64,000 bases of DNA. Source: Kondoa subrosea (Eukaryota). Under the pieces are notes generated by a model. That model did no database searches and was not told where the DNA came from. It saw only the letters and a program-made list of their open reading frames with translations. The DNA is taken from assembly GCA_039545335.1 (NCBI GenBank), contig BCIN01000001.1, forward strand, positions 1,348,604 to 1,412,603. The letters run 5' to 3'. The translations under genes were made by a program, and so were the position numbers. Shown piece after piece: positions 45,277 through 64,000 of the stretch (position 1 is its first letter; each line of letters starts with the position of its first letter).

Positions 45277-48200
45277 CTATACTCTACTTGACACTTTACC
45301 TGTGACATCACGCGTCAGCTTACTTCTTAATCATAGGTAATGCTTGTACTCACCCAAAACTAAACGCGACTTTTGTTCTGCTTCGGTATCATTAACTTCA
45401 TCTCTTGAATTATTATGGTGATGTAGTACATTATTAGCTGCTTTTCTCAATGCTTTGAAAGGATTCTTCTTCAATGAGGTAGCAGAAGAAGGTGGGGAAG
45501 AGGGGGATTGAGGTGATTGAGGTGAATTGGAGTTTGAATAATCCGGTGACGATGGATTCCATGGACTTTGACTCGTTTGAGGTGTTGCGTTTTGTAATGT
45601 GATTCGAGGCATTCCTTCTGCTGCTAAGCCATCATCTTCATTCACTTCAGCAAATCTCCCATCGTCGGATGACTGTTTTAAGAATCATACTTGAGATAAA
45701 ATGAAGTGTCTGAGTCGCAAATGAAAGCCTCACATTGGAGATGTTCTCTGGACTATCTGCTGTATCTTGACTGGCATATCTAGAAGATTGTACATAGGGT
45801 GGATCCCTCTTATCGATTTTTGGTGGAGGCTGTTTATCTAACTCAGTAACTGATATTCCAGTATGAAGAGACAAAAGACGTACATGAGTCCGCACGGAGG
45901 AAGTATCACTAGTACGAGACACCTCGCGTGCCAGAGGACTCTTTTCTGTTTCTTCAATAACCGCGTCGGCAGTTTTGCTAGTATTGCTATTGCTGCCACC
46001 AAACTTTAGTAGACCTTTGGGATGCTGTAAGCGTTGCACATGACTGCGAGCAAAGTTCTTTGGGTTTCGAGCTGTGGTCAAGACTTGACTGATAAGACTA
46101 CCACCCTGTATCGACATCAAGAAATTGTCAGAACACCGAAGCCATTGCAGGCGCCGGCTCAACTGACCTGGCGGATAAGAGACATTTTAAGATCTATAGC
46201 ACAAGCATACATCAGCATTTGCAGCTGTTGAGGGTATAGTGAGGAAGCACCTTTCTTCGCAGCTTGCCAGAGATCCCAATATGACCATGTCTGATGAGCA
46301 TACGTGAAAGTAGGTGTTCGATAAACCAAGCCATATACGTCTTTGAAGCTACTGTCGCCTAGGGCCTGCAAGAAAACGATCAGATAGGCAACCAATTACC
46401 TGAGGCGCTGACCATACTTTGTGAGATAGACATATCACTGTAGGTGAGAAGTTGACATGGACAAAGGTGCGATTCGCTTTAGCACGTTCCTTCATTTCGT
46501 CGACATCGAGATCATCATCTTCAATCAGTGGATCGCGACTGAAGCGATGCATCGATCTACTGGATTGGCCATGATTGCCACTGAGGTAAGATAGAACAGA
46601 GTTAGAAGTGGTCATCGGAGGTCGGCGAAGGAAAACGCTGCTGCGCCTTGAAGGTGTATCACTGACTCCACTGCTGTAAGTGGATAGTGACTCTTGTGAT
46701 CGAGAAGCAGCCTTCAGATACATGCCAGGGTGTAGAGATGATCGACTCGAAGCATTCGATTTCTCTGTGATCTTTTTCGTCTTCTTCTTCTTGCTGCCGC
46801 GACCAAAGGGCAATGCAAGTTTCCCGCCACCCTCTCCATCCGCTCGGCCTGCCATGCTACCGAAGATGTAACTGATGATGGTTTCGCCAACTTGAGCTTC
46901 CAGTTGAAGAAAGACTGGATGCAGGTGCAATTCAAGATGTTCCACGATAGCAATTCCACCCACAGGAGGCAGGACGGACCAAGTTGAGCAGAGAAAGATG
47001 TCGCGCCGAGTTAGCTCATGATCAGGGGCACCTTGGTATTTGGTGATGATTTCGGTGAAGAGCGGATCAGGTGCACTATTGAGAGCTTGCAGGTCTTTGA
47101 CAACCACTGCGTTTGAGGTACTACCGTCGGCCTTGTTCTGCCAATCGAAGTTGACACCAACAACGGCCAATTTGACTATTGGTTTGTCATCATTTGATGT
47201 CATGTTCCATATCAATTCATGCGCAGTGGCGCCGAAACGAATACCCAAAGAGCCGCCCTTTTGACTGTCGGATTCGGTATTGCGTTGTTGCGTCTGCCTG
47301 ATGCCTTCGACTTCCAAGAGCAATTGCTGTGATTCATGCAACATTGAAGCTTGATGATAAAAGTAATCTTCCCTTTCGATCGGGTCCATAATGTCAAGAT
47401 CGCGCTCATGCTTGCGTACGGTTGCTAACAGTCCACGTATACGGTGCTGGTATTCATCTACGATTTCAGCTCGGCGTGCAAGATCTGAAAAATCATTGAG
47501 TAGCAATGCCGCTTCCAAACGGTCAGACTTGTGCTTTTGAGCCGAATCCGTATGCAGCAAGAGATCCGTCACCAAAGTAAAAAAGGCATTGTACTGCTTG
47601 GGATTGGCGGTCACAGACAGTTTGCCAACAGCCACAGAGGCATGGTCAACGGCCAGTCGGATATGTTCACTGATGCTTGTGTCGTCCCTTCGATTTTCAC
47701 TACTATCTCTTCCTCCAGTACTTCCAATACGCAGCTTGTTGAATCTATCATATCGGACCATAGCGACTGTAGAAGGGCTGATGCGATCGAAATCGTAAGG
47801 ATCCACGTTCTCGTTCAGTAAGACTTCGTATGGCACAACACTACCGCGACCGGCAATTGATGTTGCTCCAAAAGAATCGTTCGAGTGAGGGTAGAAGAGC
47901 TGGAGACCTTTGAGTTCCCCGTAATTTCTGTGCATTACCAAAGAATTGACTGGATCATCCTTTAGTGTTTCATCCACGACAGAAAAAGTCTTGAGAGTGG
48001 CCAATAAAGTACTTATAATCATTTCGGCCTCAGGATTACTTTCGCTGCGAAGCGCAAATTGCGGCACAAGCAGTATACACAGGAAGGTGTTGTTCAGAGT
48101 ATAGTTCTCTGGTAGATCTGCTGCTGCATCCTCAATGGGATCCACTTGGCTGGATTGTGTCTCTTCCTGGACGCCTTTGTGCGGAAGTGTACTTTTCGTC

Positions 48201-51200
48201 GCCCATGCAAGCACGGGTTCTTGAGCATCATCAGCCAGGTCGTTGAGCATCTTACACCATCCTGGCGCATCCGATGTCCTCTCCTCCGGATCCTTGAGAG
48301 TTGTTACAGTTGATTTGCGACCTTTAGCTTTAGGCCTCTTCACGAGCTTCTGAGTACGATGGTGATGTATATGATGCTGCATCGGTTCTGCTTGCTTCTC
48401 CATCTGGGCGGCAGCAAGGTCCCTGATGAATTTGATGGCTTGCGCTGACATTTGATCTGAGCAATCTGGTCAGCTCTACTCAAATCAGATCGAAAAGTAC
48501 TCACAAGCTTCAGCTTTTCTCGATCGATTGCTGTAATAGTACTTGAGTAGGATATCCCTTGACGAGTTGCTGACTTGAATTTCAGGATTATGCATCATCA
48601 ATCTATTGGTCCAATGTCCGACGTCTTCGTGCAAAGCGTTGTCGAGCATCGGCAGGTGATAGCCGTATTCTTGTGTTCGTCTTGCAAACTTCTCTTCAGC
48701 CTTCTTTCGTGTTCCCTTAGTGCCGCTGTGTCTCGCGTCGCGCAACTCTTGAGCCAAATTCAGTAATACTTCCAATGCAGTGATGCGTTGCTGAAGTTCC
48801 TGCTCTCTCGTCTGCGCATTTCGAGTACCAACCTATCTACAAGTCAGTTGAAGTTAATTGAGATCGAGGTACACCTACGACGTGCAGTTCATCTCTTTCT
48901 TCTCGACTCAGACCATTCAAGATTTCGCGTAAGCGCATCAAGCGTCGTTTGCATGCCTCTCTCTGCACTTTGAGGTAATCTAGTAGGCTCTCTCAGCCGA
49001 TTATACACAAAATCACTACAGATGTGCCATACCAGGAGCCTGACCCATCAGGCAGAAGTGACTTTTTTCATCGCCAAACTTTGATCTTGTGATACCTTTC
49101 CCTTCAGGTGCTTGAGCTTCTGCATCTTCACCATCCGGCCGGACCACAGCATCTTGTTTGTTAGGTTGGCGATAGTAGACAAGTTGAGGACATGTGAGAA
49201 CCGGTACTACTCGGATTTGAGGGTTCAGATCCGAGTAAGCAGGGCCAAGATCCCGGAAGTCATCGAGGTCAACCCAATTCTCCTGTTCTTCAGTCAGCGG
49301 AGGTACTCTTGGCTTCAGTTCAAGATCGTCTTCTGTCGGTTCAGTATCAGGGTCGACCTTGTCAGCCACATGCATCTTTTCCTTATCATCAAAGACCGCT
49401 GATAGAGCTCTGAGATCGACACCATCACACTGAATCTCGGCGGTGTAGAAGTTTTTGTGCATAGCGGTCTTTGTGTCTCCTATTTGAGGACGAAGAACCA
49501 GTTCTTCCTCCTCTCGTTGATGTAGATCGACTTTAATAGAATCGACTCTGCCTTTCATAGCAACAACATGTGTAAGACCTCGGTGCCAATCTTGGACCGC
49601 CTCCTGTCTGTAACTATGACATAAGGTGATTGGTGCCAAGTCACAGCGATACTTGATTGTTGCAGTGTGCCGCCCAAATTTAGGCGAACTACCCTGTCCT
49701 CCAGGAGCATCGGGAAACAGATCACCTTGACGAATCGGTAAAGACATTGCGCTGTTGAAAAGCGACCACCAGCGCCAGAAGTGAGCGGTGAGCATAGGAG
49801 CCAGGTGAAAGCTGTTTGTTGCGTCGGGCATGTACTTTGTTTGGTCTGGAAGAGGTGAAGTGACAGAAATGGAGAAATGAATGAAGTTTGAGCGAAATTC
49901 GTGAAAAGAATCGATGGGCTAAAGTGATACAATTAGAGCAGCACAGATGGAATCGATCATCTACATACCCTAGGTTCATCCTCGCTAGGCATACTGATGG
50001 TCTTGACTTTGTGGTGCGGAATGAAATCAAAGAAACGACATATACGATGGAAAGGCGATCCAGTACAGGTCTTCATCTGTTTGCAATTGTCGTCTGTGCA
50101 GGTTCGTTCTAATTTGAAGCCCATGCCCCACCGCACGCCATTCACTAATTTGAACATGATTTTGGAGAAAGTAGCATCCTTTGATGTTCCGAAACCGTTT
50201 TGTTGCACTGTCGAACGATCATCGTCTGGACCATCAACCTTTTTTGAGCCAATAGCTGCGAAATCAGCGTATTCGGCCAGATCAGGAACGCCCAATATAT
50301 ATCCATCGCTAATGATTTGAATCAATTCGCGATCTTTATTCTGTAGACCGATGTTGATTTGGACATTGTTCCGCCAACACTTCACGAAGCCAGCTCCGTG
50401 TCCATCCAGCAGATATGGGTCTCGGCTTCCTTTGAGATTGATGTGAAGGTCGCCGTGAGGCTGTAACAGGAACTGAATGTGGCCATGTGCTAGAAGGCGA
50501 AGTTTATCCCAGAAGCCGATACGATCAGATGGATCTTCAGAAGGCTTGCTAAGCCCTTCCAGTGTCCTGGCAAGATCCTGAATGGCTGGCTGGACCGACT
50601 GACCCCAGCCGAAGCGAACAGGCCAAGCAGAACCAATTCGTACCAGCGGTCGCCCATACACTTTAGTCGGCATGGCGGATCGCAAAATAGTCAGATTGAA
50701 TGGCGCGGTAGTGTGCAGTCGGCCTGATCGAGGAATGATCTCGCAGGGTATATGTCGAATAGACTTCGGTTCAGGCATTTCTTCAGCCACAACAAAGATA
50801 GAATCAGTGTGCCAAGCTGTAATATCTGTCCGACCTTGCTGTACAGGTGGTACATGTAAAAGTGGTAATGGATAATCGCGCAACCTGATCTTGAATTCAG
50901 ACATGGTCCATTTCAGCTGAACAGGTATCAAGAGAGAGAATTTGGTTTCGTGCGGAAGCTGACCAATGTCAGACAAAAAGTCGCGTAGCTGCATGTCAGA
51001 CATGTCGGGAGGTTTGATATGCATACTCAGGTCGGCCATAGTAGCTCGCATGAGAGGACGCTCTTGAACATGCGAGCGCAAGCGAATAGGAAGTTCGTCA
51101 GCTGTGCGTTGTACGGTAATGCGACCACTCAGTCGACGCAGCAACGCTTCTTCACGCCGACCTTGCTCATCCTTGGCTTTGTCAATGCGTCTTATCCATG

Positions 51201-54200
51201 CACTGGAATTGAATGCATGGAAGCGCTCGCGAGCTGTTTCAACAGATACACTTGACGCAGTAGATAGACCGTTGTTCGCCGATTTTGCATGATGCTGACT
51301 AGGACTGAAGTTATCCTGGTTGAGAAGAGATACTTTCGCTTGGAAGACATCATCTCTAGCCATTCTGGCTTGCTGCTCATCGATACCAACTCGCCGCAAA
51401 ATATTCAATCGAGTTTCGAATGGATCGTCCTGAGCGTCGATGATCAAGAGCTTTAGATTGAGCTGGATCTCAGGCAGAATCTTGGCTTTCTCCGGTGCCG
51501 GGGTTAGAATTGAGTCTTGTCCGCCATGGATGAATTGATGGTTCAATTGCTTTACACCTTTGACGAGTGATATCAAATTGTCGGTTATATTGGAGAGGGG
51601 AAACTTGTAAGGAAGACGTAGTCTAGCAGTATCGCCTGTGAGACGAAGAAAGATTTTCGAGCTACCATCGTCCTGAAGTTTCTTGCTCGGCCGCACCACC
51701 CAATGCTGTAGATTCAGCACTTCTTCCCATTGATCATGCAGAAGTGGGCTCGGAACCGCTCCGAGAAGAGTATCGATTACGAATTGAGGCGAACTTTTCC
51801 CATCCGCTTTCATTTCTATGCGTTTGAGATAGATGAAGACCCGAACTTGATGTGGAAGATGAATATTGAGATGTGAGTTAGAAACCTCCATGCAAATGTC
51901 GAATTTGGGGACTGCGGTGATTTGGTTCTTGACTTTGCTTGATTCTGAATTTGGTTTGGGTGATTGCATCTTCCTGAAAACTCCTTGAATTGTTGAAATG
52001 GCAACAAAGCAGCAGTATATATGGAAGAGATCGATAGAAGCCTTGACTTTGGTCACTACCGATTTCACAATGATGGATGTGCCCGTTCGAAGCAGAAGTG
52101 GACTCTGCAAGGATGCTTCGGTTGTTGGCCAAAAGGAGATACGACATATTGATCCCGTCAAAGCTAAAACGGCCTGACGCTTGAAAGGCTTTGTCGATGT
52201 ACCTTCTGAGCGCATCTTGCTTGGACTTGTAGTTGCATTTCCGATATGCTCGGTGCGCCCTCTGAATTCCCATTCAACCTTTGAAGCAAGAGATTCAAGC
52301 GAGTCCTTTGTCGCCGGCGTGCTATACATGTGAGTTTTGCGATCGAAAACAGCTGCATTGACGATTGGATCTAGTCGGAATTGACCAACAGACGCTTTGC
52401 CTGTTATTATTCGTTCCTTCTGTTGACCCACGAGTTGCGCGTGAGCTTGACTTCTTATATCTTCATTCAGCCGCAAAGCATCGCGGTTGAGATCAACGAT
52501 TGTGCCACTATGTGCCTCAATGGCAGAGAAGTATTCAAGGGTGAGATGACTAGCTGCAATATATAGTCCACGAGATATATGTGGATCGTATTTGGGATCT
52601 GGTCCGGCAACCAGGAGTCGGAGCTCTTGGAGTGTCGCGCGAATGAGCAAGTTGGTCGGAAAGCTGAACGGACGCTTCGACCCTGTCTTGACCTTGCTAC
52701 TTGATGCGGGCAGTATGCTTCTGAGATTGGCTGCTTGTACCTGTATGGCTTGTATGACATTGAAGCATTTGGTTTGCCACAGATGAACTTCTATATTTTC
52801 GCTAAAGGCTTCTATTTCGCCTCCTGCTTCAGTGAGCTGGAGTTGAAGCAGACGACCATGTTCTCGAATCGGAATGCTTAAATCAACCTTGCTATTGAGC
52901 ATACCAAATGTAATAAACTGGTGTCGGACATGCGAGGCTTCTGCATCTGTTTGGCCATCACGAGATAATATCGAGACACCAGCACTCGACTCGGTTGTCA
53001 AATTGATTCGACATTGATATGTACCGCTGTGATGTCTCGCATTGAGTGGAATTGGCGACCTGATGGCTTGATTTCCTTGTTTAAGAAAGGGGCATTCCTC
53101 TGCATCGTATGCTTGCGTGGTGATTCTGGAAGGGCTCGAAGGATTCTTGATAAGAGCAGTGAGCTTGGGAGTCATATCGAACGCGTCCCGAAGTACTTGC
53201 GGAACTTGAGATGAGTCAGATCTATAGTGCTTCTTGACTTCTCGTTTATGCTGATCAGAGCGCTGCAGAATGACAGGCTTATTCGAACCTGAGCAAGCGA
53301 AATGTATAGCAGGAACATTTAAGCATAAGAGATCTTCGGCACTCCACGAGTCATCGGTATCTGAGCTGCTTTCCTCGCCTGCAGGTAGTTTTACTTCCCG
53401 CTTGACTTTTGGGCCTCTCAGTCTTACAGCCAAGCTTTCGAAAGTTAGACCAGCAACCAGTGTAGGTAGAGTCCTGACCACTTTTAGCGGTGCTGAATGG
53501 GCGGCAGAAGATGGCGCAGTTTTGCGACGAGGTAAGAGAGCACATATGCGAACCAACTGTTCTACTCGGTCGCTTTCCAGCTCAAGACGTAGGCTCCCGA
53601 TCAGAGCATCAACAACGACCTGCGGTTCGCAAAGTAATGCTTTGTCCTGACGATTAAGCCACTCTGGTATATTTTCTGGAGTCCAAGTAGATGTCATGTG
53701 AAGGTGAGAGGCGCCCATAGAGAAAGCATGAGGCTTGATCTCTTCTGCAAAGCCGAAACATGAGTTTTATTTAGAAGCAACCACAAATACACACCAGAGT
53801 CGTTCTCAAACTGAAGTTCAGACTTCCAACCTTCCCATGCGACCATGACAGATCCAGCTAGAGGAACGTGACAGCCAATGAATTCCTTGTGACCACGGAA
53901 CGGTGCGCTTTCTACATGTTTCGAAGCCTTGTCGAAGTGACCACCTAGCAAGATTGTTGTTTTAAAGGCTTGTAAAGTAGAAGAAACGAGGTAGCTTCCT
54001 TGTGAATGCGCTGGTTGAGCATAATGGACAGTCAGGTCCGGTAATTCGACCCGAAGACATCGTAGAGATGCCAGTAACATGATGCTTTTAGAACGAGACG
54101 AATGATCAGATGGCGCGGCACCGTTCTGAGCAGATTGGAGCTCCCCAGCCCCGTGTTTCAAACCGATAGTCGTTCGAATTTCGCTGATGAGGTGTAGGAT

Positions 54201-55549
54201 CTCTGCTGCTTCGATGTTGATCTGATCGCCATTTTCCAAGAAGTCTGAAGAAGGCGTTACTTTATCATATTTGAGATTGATATCGACCCATTGAGGGCGG
54301 AAATTCTTGAGGCGTTCTTTCAGCGGGCAACCTTTGTACTTTATGGCGTTGGCAGAAAGAGATGGAAAGTTGACTTCCAATCCAATAGACTGTAGTGTGG
54401 AGACAGCAGTTGCTTGATGCGGTGACTTCAAATTCTTCACTCTGAATCCTTCGCAAATGAGGAAATTGGACAGAACACGCTTTGCTCCAGATCGAGCTAG
54501 ACCCAGGCCGCATCGAGCTGTGAATTCTGCTTGTAGAAGCTGTTCGACTTCAAGTGTCGCATCACGAAATTCCACGCCAACTTGTAGTCGAGCCGCCATT
54601 GAGCTGGTTTTCAGATTGACAAAGGTCTCAAATTGAGCAACCGATGTACCGATGTTGGCTAGTGCGAGTGTGATATATTGCATTGTCACATTTGGTCCAA
54701 TAGCAATGGTCAAGCTGCAGATGGCAGCGCTGAATCTGGTTTTAGAAAAGGATCTTCAGATTTTCCGAAGTCATACATACATGAAGAGTATAGCGAAGTA
54801 GTGATGTATCTGAGTGAATACTCGCTACATAAGCATATGAGCTCGTGTCATTCTGTTCCGTAGATAAGATATACCTGTCCAATGAAGTAACCCAATGCAG
54901 CCAAGATATACAAAGCTAATTTGTTACTCAAAGAAGTGCTTGTAACTTGTTCGCGGACTCTTGTTATGGGTTGACACCATTCTTTGGGGAGACATTGGTA
55001 AAGACTGTCAAAGGCGAGAGAATGGAGATATGACAAGAACCAGTGTCCTGTTCTCGCCCAAGAGCCTATCCAGAGTATACTTGACTTGATACGAAAGCCG
55101 AATCCAGCTGGATTATGTTCTGTGTCGGACTTTTGCTGTGTATCCGCTTTATCCTGTTTCTTTGTTGACACAGTTTGGATCCGTTTTGCGAAATGAGTTT
55201 TAGGCATCCGAGCAGTGACTCCGTCGACCCTGAGCCCAATCCATCTGCCTGATCCTAGCCCTTTCGCAGCGAAGACAATGCTTGCTTTTCGGACAGTGAC
55301 TTTGGTTCGTTCAGGTGTATCCGGCTGACTTGCATCCACAGTAACGCTCTTGCCTTCCCATTCAATATCTTGCAAGCTGAAGAGCCCATCCTTCCAGCTG
55401 AAAAAGCCAACATGACCTACCGTAATATGATGCACATAGCGGCGAAAGAAGAGAGCTATAGTAAAGCGAAAGAGTAGACCAGATGAGCAGATTACGCCAA
55501 TTAGAACGATCAGGGCTGGAATTAGAGGAACACCGAGCCAGTGCGGCAT
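45277..55549 (-). CDS. FMP27: Bridge-like lipid transfer protein Fmp27/BLTP2 (Hobbit), multi-exon, >3000 aa
   Basis: N-terminal TM anchor; DDPFETRL, LRDYPLPLL, DPSDRIGFWDKLRL (GFWDK), LKGSRDPY, HFWRWWSLF...LPIRQG, KFGRH..TIKY, Apt1-like C-terminus. Confidence 0.95.
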
Positions 55550-59245: not shown

Positions 59246-62200
59246 ATGCAGCATCCAATCCCTGCTGTCCGGCCTGGTACACTCCCTCCTGGGACTTCTG
59301 TTCGTATAGGGGAATACAAAGTCTACATCGAGCGCTTTCTCTCAGAAGGCTAGTCCCCTCACTAGCTATCAGAGCCAAGCTGAAAGGCGTCAATAGGAGG
59401 ATTCGCTCATGTCTACTTGGTCAGGTCAACTGCTCCTATACCTGCTGGATCAGATCAGACTCTGCATGTCCTCAAGAGATTAGCTGTACCCGATAAAATA
59501 CAGTTGCAATTCGTTCGCAAGGAAGTCGATATCATGGTCAGTCTCTGTGTCTGCGAGAAAGACATGAGACATGAGCTGATGTAGAAGAGAAACGATAGAA
59601 AGCTGTCAAGGGTAATCGGTATATCATCAACTTCATTGAAGCTTCGGCATCTGAACTACCGAACAAGAGCGGTTATGAGGTCTTCATCCTGATGGAATAT
59701 GCCCCAGGTCCATTCTCATCATCCTCCCATATTGAATGAGAGCTTATGAGCTTGAACAGGCGGTGGTATTATCGATATGATGAACACTAGACTTCAAAAT
59801 CGACTGACTGAAAGTGAGATCCTCAAGATCTTCTCTGATACAGTCGAAGTAGGGTCCGATATTGCTGTCAAACTCTTACTTATAGTTGATCCAGGCCGTC
59901 GCGCATATGCATCACCTTGATCCACCTCTGATGCATCGGGATCTGAAAGTAGAAAACATTCTCTTATCCTCTCCTTCCTGCTATAAGCTATGCGACTTCG
60001 GATCAGCAACGACACCTTTTGCACAAGCAGCGCAAAGCATACCTGAAATTCAAGCACTCGAAGCGGATCTCAATCGGACGACTACTTTGCAATATAGAGC
60101 GCCAGAGATGTGCGATGTTTGGGCAAGGAAACCAATTGGTCTGCCTGCTGATGTATGGGCTCTTGGTGTCTTCCTCTACAAGTTGTGTTACTATACAACC
60201 CCATTTGAAGAACATGGCGTTTTGGCTATCCAAAATGTGCAATATAAGTTCCCTTCATATCCAGCTTACTCACCAGCGATACGAGAATTGATCGGTACGT
60301 TCTGATATCAGCTGGCGAATGTCTTGACTTATCGCCATTTTAGCGAGCATGTTGCAAGAATCTTCGAGTTCTAGACCGAACATCGATCAAATACATCAAC
60401 AAGTCTGCCGACTGCGCGGAATCACACCGAAGCCTCGTCAACAAGTCTCAAAAGCCAAAAGTCAAGAAGAACATCCACCTTTACCTAGAAGACCGCTTGG
60501 TAAAATCGCTTCGGCTCCTTCACCTGTGCCTTCATCTGGCAAACCTTCCCTCTTCACTTCAGCAGCAGCGTCTATACCTACACAAGATCCAGATACAGTG
60601 AAAGATGCTATACAGCCAATGCGCAGGGGTAGACCGGGAATTAAGACCAAAGCGCAGGGATCCGAAGATACAAGCGGTTTTGACGATGCTTTCAAGCCGA
60701 GTGAAAAGTCTGTAGAACGAGTGAAATCACCTTATGAAGATTTCGAGCAAGCATTCCCTGCTTTGGACGACTTCAACTCTTCTGCTTTCTCACCTTCGGA
60801 GTCTTTTCAGCCTACAATCAAATCTCCTAGTCCGCCTCATCCTCTTGTTCAATCGCCTACTCCTACCAATATACCTTCAGCGAAAAGCAATCTTGATTCC
60901 GGTCTTCTTCCTCCGCAAAGTGACGTTATCGAACGATCGGCCTCCGGATTCAAAGACCTACTTTCACCGTCTCCTACCGACTCGAATGCTCTTCAACAGA
61001 ACATAGATCGAAATAGTTCGCCTTCACTGCAGAATGCACTTAGAATCGGTCCGAAATTAGCGAGCACTTCTGACTTGAGCAGTTTGAACAAACCTTCCGC
61101 ACCACCGAAACCAGCCAGTCTTTCTCTTGATACCAATACACCTTCTTCTCTAGTAAACAAGCGTCAAAATCTCGTTAGTCAAAGTTCCCAAACTTCGCCA
61201 GTATTGCTCGAAAAATGGTGGCAGGAAAAGATGGCTTTAGAAAAGGATGACGGATCTGAAATAAAATCACCTCGACCTTCAGACTTCAAGAAAGCCGCTT
61301 CTAGACAGAAATCGGTCGATCTTTGGTCTGATTCGTCACCTTTAACGCTAACAAGCGAGAAATCTCCAGTGCTACTTCCGAAAAGAGATTTGCTGGATTC
61401 ATCCCCTCCGCCGACTCAACCAGAAGCCAGTAATACAGTCTCAGAAGATGCACAAGCGAAAACAGCTGCTGCTCTTTCTTCTCTTCGAGCCAACATCTCG
61501 ACAGAACCGATCCCTCCTTCGCCTACTGTCAATGATTTAGAGAGCATAAGGCAACGTTTTCCTGATCTCCAATCTGCACAGAGCACAGGCACTAGCAAAG
61601 CACCTAAACCTGCCAAGCCTTCGTATCTTCGCTCGCCGGTATCAGAAGTCTCAGAATCGAGCGATGAAGAGGACGAAAAACCGGAAGAATTGGATACCAA
61701 GGGGTCAAGTCAATTGCTTCATCCTGAGCCTACTTCAATCTCTATTTCAAGGACCTCGAGCGCAAGTAGTATCAAGGCAGCCAAGCAAAATGGGTCCTTC
61801 GACCTCGATAAAGCTCTATCAAACATTCAGAAGTTTGCGCCGCCCACTCAATCTGTGTCTGATACAACTTCCGCAACACCAATAACTAAGCCTCAACAAT
61901 CACCTGTAATCATTCAGGCGCCTGTGCCAACCAAACCAAAGTATGCGATATCGAGGTTAGTCTTTGATGCACTCTGTTTGTACCCAACCTGATATCTGAC
62001 ACAGTCTGGTATCTCGTTACGAACAAGGTGGATCAGAAGTGAGCAAGTCGCCGGAAATTTCACCAAAGCACGCTCGAAGCGCTTCCTCGGGCTCTACAAC
62101 CAGTTTACCTAAATCAGCTACCAGTCCTCGTTTCTCATATATCCATGAAGCGAGTTCCTCTGCTACCTCTTCTCCTCGACAATTGTTCAAACCTAGCAAA

Positions 62201-62385: not shown

Positions 62386-64000
62386 TCATACGTCAATTTG
62401 CATTACAGTAGATAGCCAAGGCTGTAAAAACACATCTAGTTGAACATCATCTGACCTAATGTAATCTAGTTTCAAGAGGTCTGGGCTTTTGATGCGTTGA
62501 CCAGCTGAGATTTTGACCATACTTGAAATGAGTGCGAATGCTGGATGAGGCGCCTCTAGGTACACTAGTCGACTGAGGAGCAACCCGCCTTCCATGTTTG
62601 TGAAAGGATTTCTGGAAAAGACGGGTATTCGAGCGCTTTCCTGTAGACCCATTGAGTAAAAGCTTCTGGGAGTCGAAATGACATACAGGCCATGTATCCG
62701 CAGTAGGAGTTCCCAGTACGTAGAAAATGTCGCCAATCAGCGCGATATCGCCTCGATTTTCCGCAAACAATGTGGATCGCACGCGCTTGCTTGCCTGCAG
62801 TCAGGTCAGTTTCCGTCTCGCAAAGTGTACATTCAATATGTTACCTTTGAGGTAGGTACGGCCCAAGGAGGTCTGGTCGTTAATCCTTCTTCCTCCTCTT
62901 CCTGATCATCCTCGTCTTGTCTGAAGCCAGTGAAGAATGCAGCAATGGTCGCTCCGAGAGCCCAGATATCCGTTGTGCATGCGTCGTAACTTGCATCACC
63001 ATGCAGAAGTTCAGGTGCTTTGTATGCTCTAAACAGAAAGGCTTAAGCTATCGATACAAGCTCAAAATAGATGAAGACGGACCCTGTTGCTATATCGCAG
63101 CACATGTTTCCTTCCGCTTCGTCCACATTCGGTCCATTGTACGCAATCCCAAAGTCGATCAGCACGATCTGGCCCTTTGATCCGATAACGAAATTCGAGG
63201 GATTGATATCTCGGTGAGCGATACCTAGTTCATGAATATAGGCAATAGACTTGCACATTTGACCAATGAGTGCTCTACTGATAACTTGGAAATGCTTTTG
63301 ATCCGGTACGAAAGTAGGACTATTGAGTAAAGTTGTGAGGGAAAGAGGATAAAATGGCATTGCGAGATTGTAGGAGCCATTGGTATAGCGATCATCAAGG
63401 AGGGGTGCGATCTTTGTACATCTTTAGATTATGATCCACCAGACAAGAAGAAGCATTACCTGTTTACAGTTCAGAGCTTGTAGGATTTCGATTTCCCGTT
63501 TCACATTATGAGGTTGAGGTAATGTCGCAGCAGTAACTTTCTTGATCGCGACCCACCCAGCTAGCCCTTCACTTAGGCGATCGGAAAGCTTTGCATTGTA
63601 GCAACGGAAAGGCGTCCTATAGACAGCTGACAAATTGTTTGCCAAAAGTACAGAATCAGTGAAATCCACTTTGTCCAGAATAGACTTGTTATCAACCCAT
63701 GAGCCAAAAGTGATGTCTTGCTCCAGATTGAGGGTCTGAAAATGCTCGAGCGGCAAAGAAGGCACATGATCCAGAGAGGGTGAGCGACCATCAGATCCAA
63801 TCAATTTGGGAGCAATGGTCACAACAATTGAGCTGAGAAGCTCTGCCGATTTAAGAACTTCAGGAAGGAAGCGAAGACCCGTTTCAACAAAGATGGAGGC
63901 GATATAGTACTGATCGTGAAGCTTCGTGAAAAGATGCCGTAAAGGTATTCGCCCAGCTTCTTCGGTGCAAGGAACAAAAGAAACTCCTAGAGTATGTAGG
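62386..64000 (-). CDS. CDK-like (Csk1/CAK-type) kinase with an in-frame N-terminal RibD_C/Rib7-like domain; 5' end outside the window
   Basis: Kinase: VAIKK, PHNVKREIEIL, HRDINPSN, IDFGIA, YKAPELLHG, DIWALG, LGTPTADTWP. Frame 63999-63424 is stop-free and begins with GRIPL..LF..L....IASIFVETG...SIVVTIAPKLIG.DG. Confidence 0.85.

Follow-up and report, generated by a model that had tools for sequence, protein, structure and literature searches.

Our analysis of a 64,000-nucleotide stretch of contig BCIN01000001.1 from Kondoa subrosea (positions 1,348,604 to 1,412,603 of the forward strand), referred to here as the window, argues for a gene on the minus strand at the very end of the stretch (62386 to 63999) in which a Rib7-like reductase domain of riboflavin biosynthesis runs in frame into a protein kinase. 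Judging from the frame and from its relatives, we consider it probable (about 0.6) that this is a genuine and conserved translational fusion, in which the reductase domain would be joined to a divergent kinase that resembles cyclin-dependent kinases (CDKs) and is probably of the CDK-activating kinase (CAK) type.

Reading frame and gene model

The first exon of the gene model, exon A, extends over 180 codons on the minus strand (63999-63460), has neither a stop nor a Met codon, and is cut on its 5′ side by the window end. Its residues 1 to 103 (63691..63999) make up the C-terminal half of a RibD_C/Rib7-type pyrimidine reductase domain. They are followed by a 13-residue linker (NKSILDKVDFTDS, 63652..63690) that is free of stops and of ATG and has Phe113 at 63663-63661, and then by residues 117 to 180 (63460..63651), a putative kinase N-lobe with SVLLA as strand beta1, NNLSA, VAIKK, and the helix HNVKREIEILQAL. 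A preliminary description of this DNA, made from the letters alone, had quoted the stop-free frame from 63999 and had stated that no in-frame ATG lies between the two parts; the quoted frame matched exactly when the sequence was re-read, and 0 Met were counted in all 180 residues of exon A. When read through, the frame is open for 191 codons and ends at a stop inside intron 1, 11 codons past the GT donor, which lies after codon 180 (63460). By arithmetic from the local G+C content of 46.5%, 180 random codons would stay open by chance in about 6 of 100,000 cases.

The gap from the last reductase strand (..ITFGSWV) to the first kinase strand (SVLLA) is just 13 residues long, too short to accommodate a stop, terminator, promoter, and leader. 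Across the linker, codon-usage log-odds are highest in frame 0. Furthermore, a loose scan of exon A for introns returned four candidates, which have one acceptor in common, poor donors, and lengths not divisible by 3.

Downstream of exon A, the gene model, as read from the sequence, has four introns, all with GT..AG ends. Intron 1 (63412..63459, 48 nt, phase 0) is followed by exon B (63083..63411), the kinase core with HRDINPSN and DFG; intron 2 (63029-63082, 54 nt) by exon C (62845..63028), with the end of the activation segment (ATG/AYKAPELL, the slash marking the splice joint), subdomain IX, and then an acidic insert; intron 3 (62795-62844, 50 nt) by exon D (62687..62794), which carries ..LGTPTADTWP; and intron 4 (62641-62686, 46 nt) by exon E (62386..62640), which holds the end of the kinase C-terminal lobe and the TGA at 62388-62386. 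The spliced coding sequence of 1416 nt stays in frame to this stop and gives 471 residues, and kinase motifs are intact across the splice joints (e.g., ..DIATG/AYKAPELL..). The first in-frame Met of the spliced product lies in exon B, past the catalytic Lys, so that translation of a kinase with an intact N-lobe would have to start ahead of the reductase part.

Conservation of the join in relatives

A word-indexed search returned P0001 (249 residues), which aligns to 178 of the 179 query residues with 54% identity and a single one-residue gap. A HMMER profile of the exon A piece and P0001, searched against 1.84 billion representatives, matched 100 proteins at E ≤ 0.001, 3 at E ≤ 1e-10, and 1 at E ≤ 1e-30. 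The best of them, P0002 (246 residues, E = 5.5e-103), is 50% identical to the window sequence and 69% identical to P0001. Both relatives have an uninterrupted frame that leads from RibD_C through the 13-residue linker, ungapped and equal in length to that of the window, into the same N-lobe. In addition, P0001, P0002, and the window lose similarity to each other directly after the Q of ..QV, exactly where the GT donor of the window lies, and the relatives continue with Val (GTN). The reductase part is the best-conserved segment, with 61/103 (P0001) and 57/103 (P0002) identical residues; the linker has 3/13 in either relative, and residues 104 to 180, that is, linker plus N-lobe, have 36/76 and 32/76, with one one-residue gap. 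Since the uninterrupted frame and the exon boundary recur in three independent assemblies, an assembly accident can be ruled out, and the in-frame join that had been proposed from the window is kept in two independent relatives, with equal linker length and the same donor position.

The next-nearest homologs, P0003, P0103, and P0104, are 39% identical and share with the fused sequences the signature E-x-G-L-R-F-[LI]-P of this clade. They are of the stand-alone form, with a stop 4 residues past the last reductase strand, and the JGI label of the P0003 cluster is "riboflavin biosynthesis pyrimidine reductase"; apart from this label, cluster look-ups returned the relatives as singletons. As open reading frame (ORF) calls on unspliced contigs, these sequences would fit an unfused ancestral state. 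Scans of metagenome contigs with the clade alignment and with P0103 for the DNA around the relatives gave no confirmed locus, and a word-indexed search with exon A for longer (fused, spliced) relatives gave none, which is weak evidence. A further match of the profile search, P0086 (1054 residues), has eight repeated short stretches that resemble the ..VVTIAPK.. strand region and matches no Pfam family at 1e-5.

The reductase half

The assignment of the upstream part to the RibD_C/Rib7 type, made in the preliminary description from its residue pattern, is borne out by family profiles, by the relatives, and by fold comparison. Residues 17 to 88 of exon A match positions 117 to 187 of the 197 positions of Pfam RibD_C (PF01872) with an E value of 1.3e-4 and 22.3 bits, slightly below the cut-off of 24.1, which is not unexpected when half a domain is scored; the scores of the same domain are 43.3 bits for P0001 and 33.6 bits for P0002, above the cut-off in both cases. 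The best NCBIfam model for exon A is TIGR00227 (ribD_Cterm; E = 3.9e-7), followed by the RibD and archaeal reductase equivalogs, all of them under their full-length cut-offs. Furthermore, the profile of exon A and P0001 matches the solved RibD structures of E. coli, Brucella, and Acinetobacter, yeast Rib7, and an archaeal reductase with E values from 6e-6 to 1.5e-3. A hidden Markov model (HMM) built from the RibD_C matches, and containing the sequence of this locus, matched a single locus in the six frames of the window, namely this one.

The AlphaFold (AF2) model of exon A has a predicted local distance difference test (pLDDT) score of about 90 for residues 1 to 60 and of 61 to 82 for residues 61 to 100. 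In Foldseek, its top rows were RibD/Rib7 structures with E values of 1.7e-3 to 3e-2, none at E ≤ 0.001. The model of P0001 had 47 PDB matches at E ≤ 0.001, headed by RibD/Rib7-type pyrimidine reductases (best, 2.4e-6), where it has to be kept in mind that the fold models were built on the RibD_C alignment and that the fold match depends on the sequence match. A search of the ESM Atlas with exon A was uninformative (best score, 0.80). Among the structural entries, PDB 8dq9, 8dqb, and 8dqc are titled "3-dehydroquinate dehydratase I" (Klebsiella oxytoca); they align as full-length RibD (375 residues, VEAG..IAPKLLG) and rank beside the E. coli RibD entries, and the title may not fit the chain.

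For the analysis of conserved residues, the matches of the profile search with a length of 200 to 420 residues were aligned with the clade as a set of 63 canonical RibD_C sequences. Exon A keeps E39, G41, and P64, which are invariant in this set, and, of the columns that are at least 70% conserved in it, G16, L20, L27, S35, V38, E39, G41, L54, A63, P64, G68, and D95. The motif VEGG reads VETG in the window (residues 38 to 41, 63888-63877, read from the sequence). At the position of its first Gly, 49 of the 63 canonical sequences have G, 12 have A, and 2 have S, and VEAG is found in the chain of E. coli RibD; in the clade (n = 4), the position is Thr40 in the window and A, S, or P in the other members. 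The clade signature is complete in 0 of the 63.

In yeast Rib7, a G76-x-G78...G181-G182 motif is located at the NADPH pyrophosphate, activity requires Thr79, Asp83, Glu180, and Gly182, and the protein forms stable homodimers through an interface to which beta1 and beta7-beta9 contribute, as described in an excerpt of PMC3631187. The equivalents of Glu180 and Gly182 in exon A are Glu39 and Gly41. The preliminary description had raised VETG as a sign of a degenerate module. This sign carries little weight, as exon A retains the catalytic Glu and the essential second Gly and as the first Gly is absent in 14 of the 63 canonical sequences. Read from the alignment, Thr40 is unusual yet not damning, and the essential reductase residues that are visible are present. 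We also considered a pseudogene or a leader remnant of RibD_C and rejected both, given that the reductase part is the best-conserved segment and that the invariant residues of the family are kept.

The kinase half

Membership of the downstream part in the eukaryotic protein kinases, as described before, is evident from exon B, which matches Pkinase (PF00069) with 46.2 bits (E = 5.1e-12; cut-off, 31.7), and from the full set of catalytic motifs; exon C adds a match of 21.1 bits (E = 2.2e-4). Against PDB sequences, exon B gave 1021 kinase matches at E ≤ 0.001, the best of which are generic (a mitogen-activated protein [MAP]-kinase-kinase-like protein, GSK, a bacterial effector kinase, GCN2, and p38), and a word-indexed protein search with exon B gave one match, a bacterial-type kinase of 1139 residues. 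The spliced product has VAIKK, a helix-C Glu 16 residues on (REIEIL), HRDINPSN, DFG, APE, DIWALG, and LGTP..TWP. In place of the glycine-rich loop GxGxxG it has NNLSA, where the relatives read NRLCS.

The tail of exon A had been described as kinase subdomains I to III. For this part of the claim speak VAIKK, the Glu 16 residues on, the position before exon B, and the splice phase; what did not hold up is recognition of the stretch by models when it is taken alone (see below). We therefore treat residues ~117 to 180 as a putative kinase N-lobe, read from motifs, from their place upstream of exon B, and from the splice phase. The LGTP..W motif is typical of CMGC/CDK-type kinases, and Cak1 of budding yeast also lacks the glycine loop and has an activation segment of the TG.YKAPE type. 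By this resemblance of motifs, the kinase is probably, and still putatively, of the monomeric Cak1/Csk1 type.

Neighboring genes

The gene at 59384-61992 on the plus strand is convergent with the fusion gene, and the 3′ ends of the two lie about 400 nt apart. It encodes a different kinase (GGFAHVYLVRS, HRDLKVENILL, CDFGSA, YRAPEM), which presumably is of the Ark1/Prk1 (NAK) type, with a Ser/Pro-rich tail of 554 residues that has no Pfam match at 1e-4. Farther away, the minus strand carries a very large Hobbit/FMP27/BLTP2 bridge-like lipid-transfer gene at 46349-54755, which shows up as several long ORFs (PF10344, E = 6e-43 and 2.6e-30). Its best Atlas cluster has a score of 0.97, and Basidiomycota is the commonest phylum among just 5 known, which gives a weak hint of an assignment to the Basidiomycota. 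The window itself is eukaryotic and probably fungal.

Weighing the fusion against other explanations

Several observations weigh against a translated and conserved fusion. The first ~115 positions of the RibD_C profile, with the GxG-T-D part for NADPH and substrate, lie beyond position 64000, the window holding the C-terminal half of the reductase, and P0001 itself covers just positions 70 to 196. P0001 and P0002 are ORF calls on unspliced contigs and were compared at the protein level. The linker is short and poorly conserved (3/13), and its open frame is weak evidence alone. Moreover, the position of Phe113, 7 residues ahead of kinase beta1, is occupied by Met in both relatives. On the kinase side, residues ~117 to 180 of exon A taken alone gave 0 Pkinase matches, 0 PDB sequence matches at E ≤ 1, and an hhalign probability of 0.3 against a kinase; AF2 confidence over the putative N-lobe is below 50, and the assignment to Cak1/Csk1 is putative. 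Finally, Thr40 occupies the first Gly of the Gly-Gly pyrophosphate motif, a position at which Thr occurs in 0 of the 63 canonical sequences.

It is imaginable that the locus gives two products, with the kinase made by an internal transcription start or internal initiation, the reductase ended by alternative splicing or polyadenylation, and the fused frame minor or untranslated. In P0001 and P0002, the linker Met sits where an unfused kinase of this type would be expected to begin; it may be left over from the start codon of a kinase gene that was once separate, and internal initiation could still make use of it in these relatives. The window, however, has Phe at this position and 0 in-frame ATG in exon A. 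If a weak GT..AG candidate of 43 nt (63669-63627) were spliced out, the reductase frame would be shifted and would meet a stop at 63573, but the donor of this candidate is poor (GTGGAT), and its removal would delete SVLLANNLS, which is conserved with the relatives. An upstream reading frame at a CAK gene has a precedent in yeast, where an ORF that lies upstream of CAK1 and overlaps the start of the gene controls its translation (excerpt of PMC13649776); no stop ends the reductase frame in the window, P0001, or P0002, and we regard two separate products as unlikely. Two adjacent genes joined by a wrong gene model would require that a hidden intron, or an exon past the window, starts the kinase and that the overlap with the reductase frame is accidental. 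It is true that the sequence upstream of exon A lies beyond the window end (64000) and that P0003, P0103, and P0104, with their stop shortly after the last strand, demonstrate that the reductase can be a separate gene. Nevertheless, an accidental overlap would not keep the frame, the linker length, and similarity on both sides at 50 to 54% identity, and 13 residues leave no space for the elements that would have to separate two genes, which makes this explanation very improbable.

A further explanation is compatible with the fusion and concerns only the state of its first half: the reductase could be a pseudoenzyme module that serves in NADPH sensing, dimerization, or localization of the kinase, with the real RIB7 encoded elsewhere. 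This would agree with the signature that the clade has for itself, with the replacement of the first Gly of Gly-Gly by Thr, Ala, Ser, or Pro in four clade members, and with the modest scores against canonical reductases (best outside the clade, E = 7e-11). However, the Glu and the second Gly that mutation has proven to be required in yeast Rib7 (excerpt of PMC3631187) are kept, the first Gly is replaced by Ala or Ser in 14 of the 63 canonical sequences as well, the aligned E. coli RibD chain reads VEAG, and it is the RibD_C part that is most conserved between the window and the relatives. A degenerate module is thus possible, yet rather unlikely, and is not favored by the residues that can be seen.

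Proposed origin and function of the fusion protein

With the fusion as the preferred reading, we propose that one gene gives one polypeptide, with an N-terminal NADPH-dependent reductase of the Rib7/RibD type, a 13-residue linker, and a CDK-like Ser/Thr kinase without a glycine loop, and that the frame would be translated as a single protein. The fusion probably arose when a stand-alone reductase gene lost the stop that separated it from a kinase gene downstream; the relatives have a Met 7 residues before beta1, and a more distant homolog stops 4 residues past the last strand. The visible catalytic residues are kept on both sides, namely Glu39, Gly41, and Pro64 in the reductase and the VAIKK Lys, the helix-C Glu, HRD..N, DFG, and APE in the kinase. 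In our model, both halves would probably be active, and reductase and CAK would then be made at a ratio of 1:1; that both activities have indeed been retained is a tentative suggestion, with the odds somewhat against it. The reductase half may also hold two kinase domains together, since the homodimer interface of yeast Rib7 uses beta1 and beta7-beta9, strands that here come just before the linker (excerpt of PMC3631187). It is even conceivable, if unlikely, that an active dimeric Rib7 is tied to the CAK of the cell in a bifunctional protein, in which occupancy by NADPH or the riboflavin precursor, or dimerization, would tune T-loop phosphorylation of the CDK.

If translated, the protein would be a natural experiment in which an enzyme of a vitamin pathway and a kinase that switches on CDKs are forced to 1:1 expression and possibly into one complex; alternatively, a reductase fold would have been taken over as a regulatory or dimerizing module for a CAK. 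Should the bifunctional reading be true, flavin/redox metabolism would be hard-wired to cell-cycle entry in a fungal lineage that is poorly sampled. If, on the other hand, the fusion is a mere by-product of the loss of a stop between neighboring genes, it would be ordinary as fungal gene fusions go, and its value would lie mainly in the annotation of the lineage. In yeast, the abundance of Cak1 is tied to nutrient state and growth via the overlapping upstream ORF of CAK1, as stated in an excerpt of PMC13649776; fusion of a metabolic domain to a CAK would couple nutrients and kinase in another way.

Comparison with known systems

The reductase half resembles Rib7 of Saccharomyces cerevisiae (PDB 4HA7/4HA9), archaeal Rib7, and the reductase domain of RibD/RibG in its RibD_C domain with a DHFR-like fold. 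With the stand-alone DAROPP/AROPP reductases it has in common the patterns ..S-[IVL]-x-V-E-x-G.. and ..V-T-I-A-P-K-L-x-G.., including the essential Glu and the second Gly. Unlike in Rib7 and RibD, the domain in exon A, seen here in its C-terminal half, has no stop and is followed by a kinase 13 residues on, and the first Gly is replaced by Thr. Its identity to the canonical RibD_C sequences compared is 22 to 37%.

To our knowledge, the known Cak1 and Csk1 are stand-alone kinases without an N-terminal enzyme domain. The kinase half, about 360 residues of a divergent CDK-like kinase, resembles Cak1 of budding yeast and Csk1 of fission yeast; it has the catalytic Lys, HRD, DFG, APE, and LGTP..W and lacks GxGxxG. 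Cak1 and Csk1 are described as true orthologs and as CAKs that act on CDK monomers (excerpt of PMC12203924), and an Aspergillus ortholog of Cak1/csk1 is named in a table in an excerpt of PMC3591445.

The literature searches gave nothing relevant on a RibD_C-kinase (or RIB7-CAK1) architecture, in line with the preliminary description, whose author knew of no such protein. Pkinase was found in 0 of 35 matches of the profile search that were scanned with Pfam; 11 of them have a domain of the cytidine-deaminase type and 5 have GTP_cyclohydro2. The 35 include 29 of the 31 matches with at least 300 residues and all 5 with at least 450, and they are clade-like sequences rather than a census of all RibD_C proteins. 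Within the riboflavin pathway, RibD_C is frequently paired with a second domain, as in the bacterial RibD, where it is fused to the deaminase, or in fusions with GTP cyclohydrolase II. These fusion partners of RibD_C are enzymes of the same pathway, whereas the kinase that is its partner here comes from outside riboflavin biosynthesis, and the gene is a new domain combination of two well-known families in a poorly sampled eukaryote.

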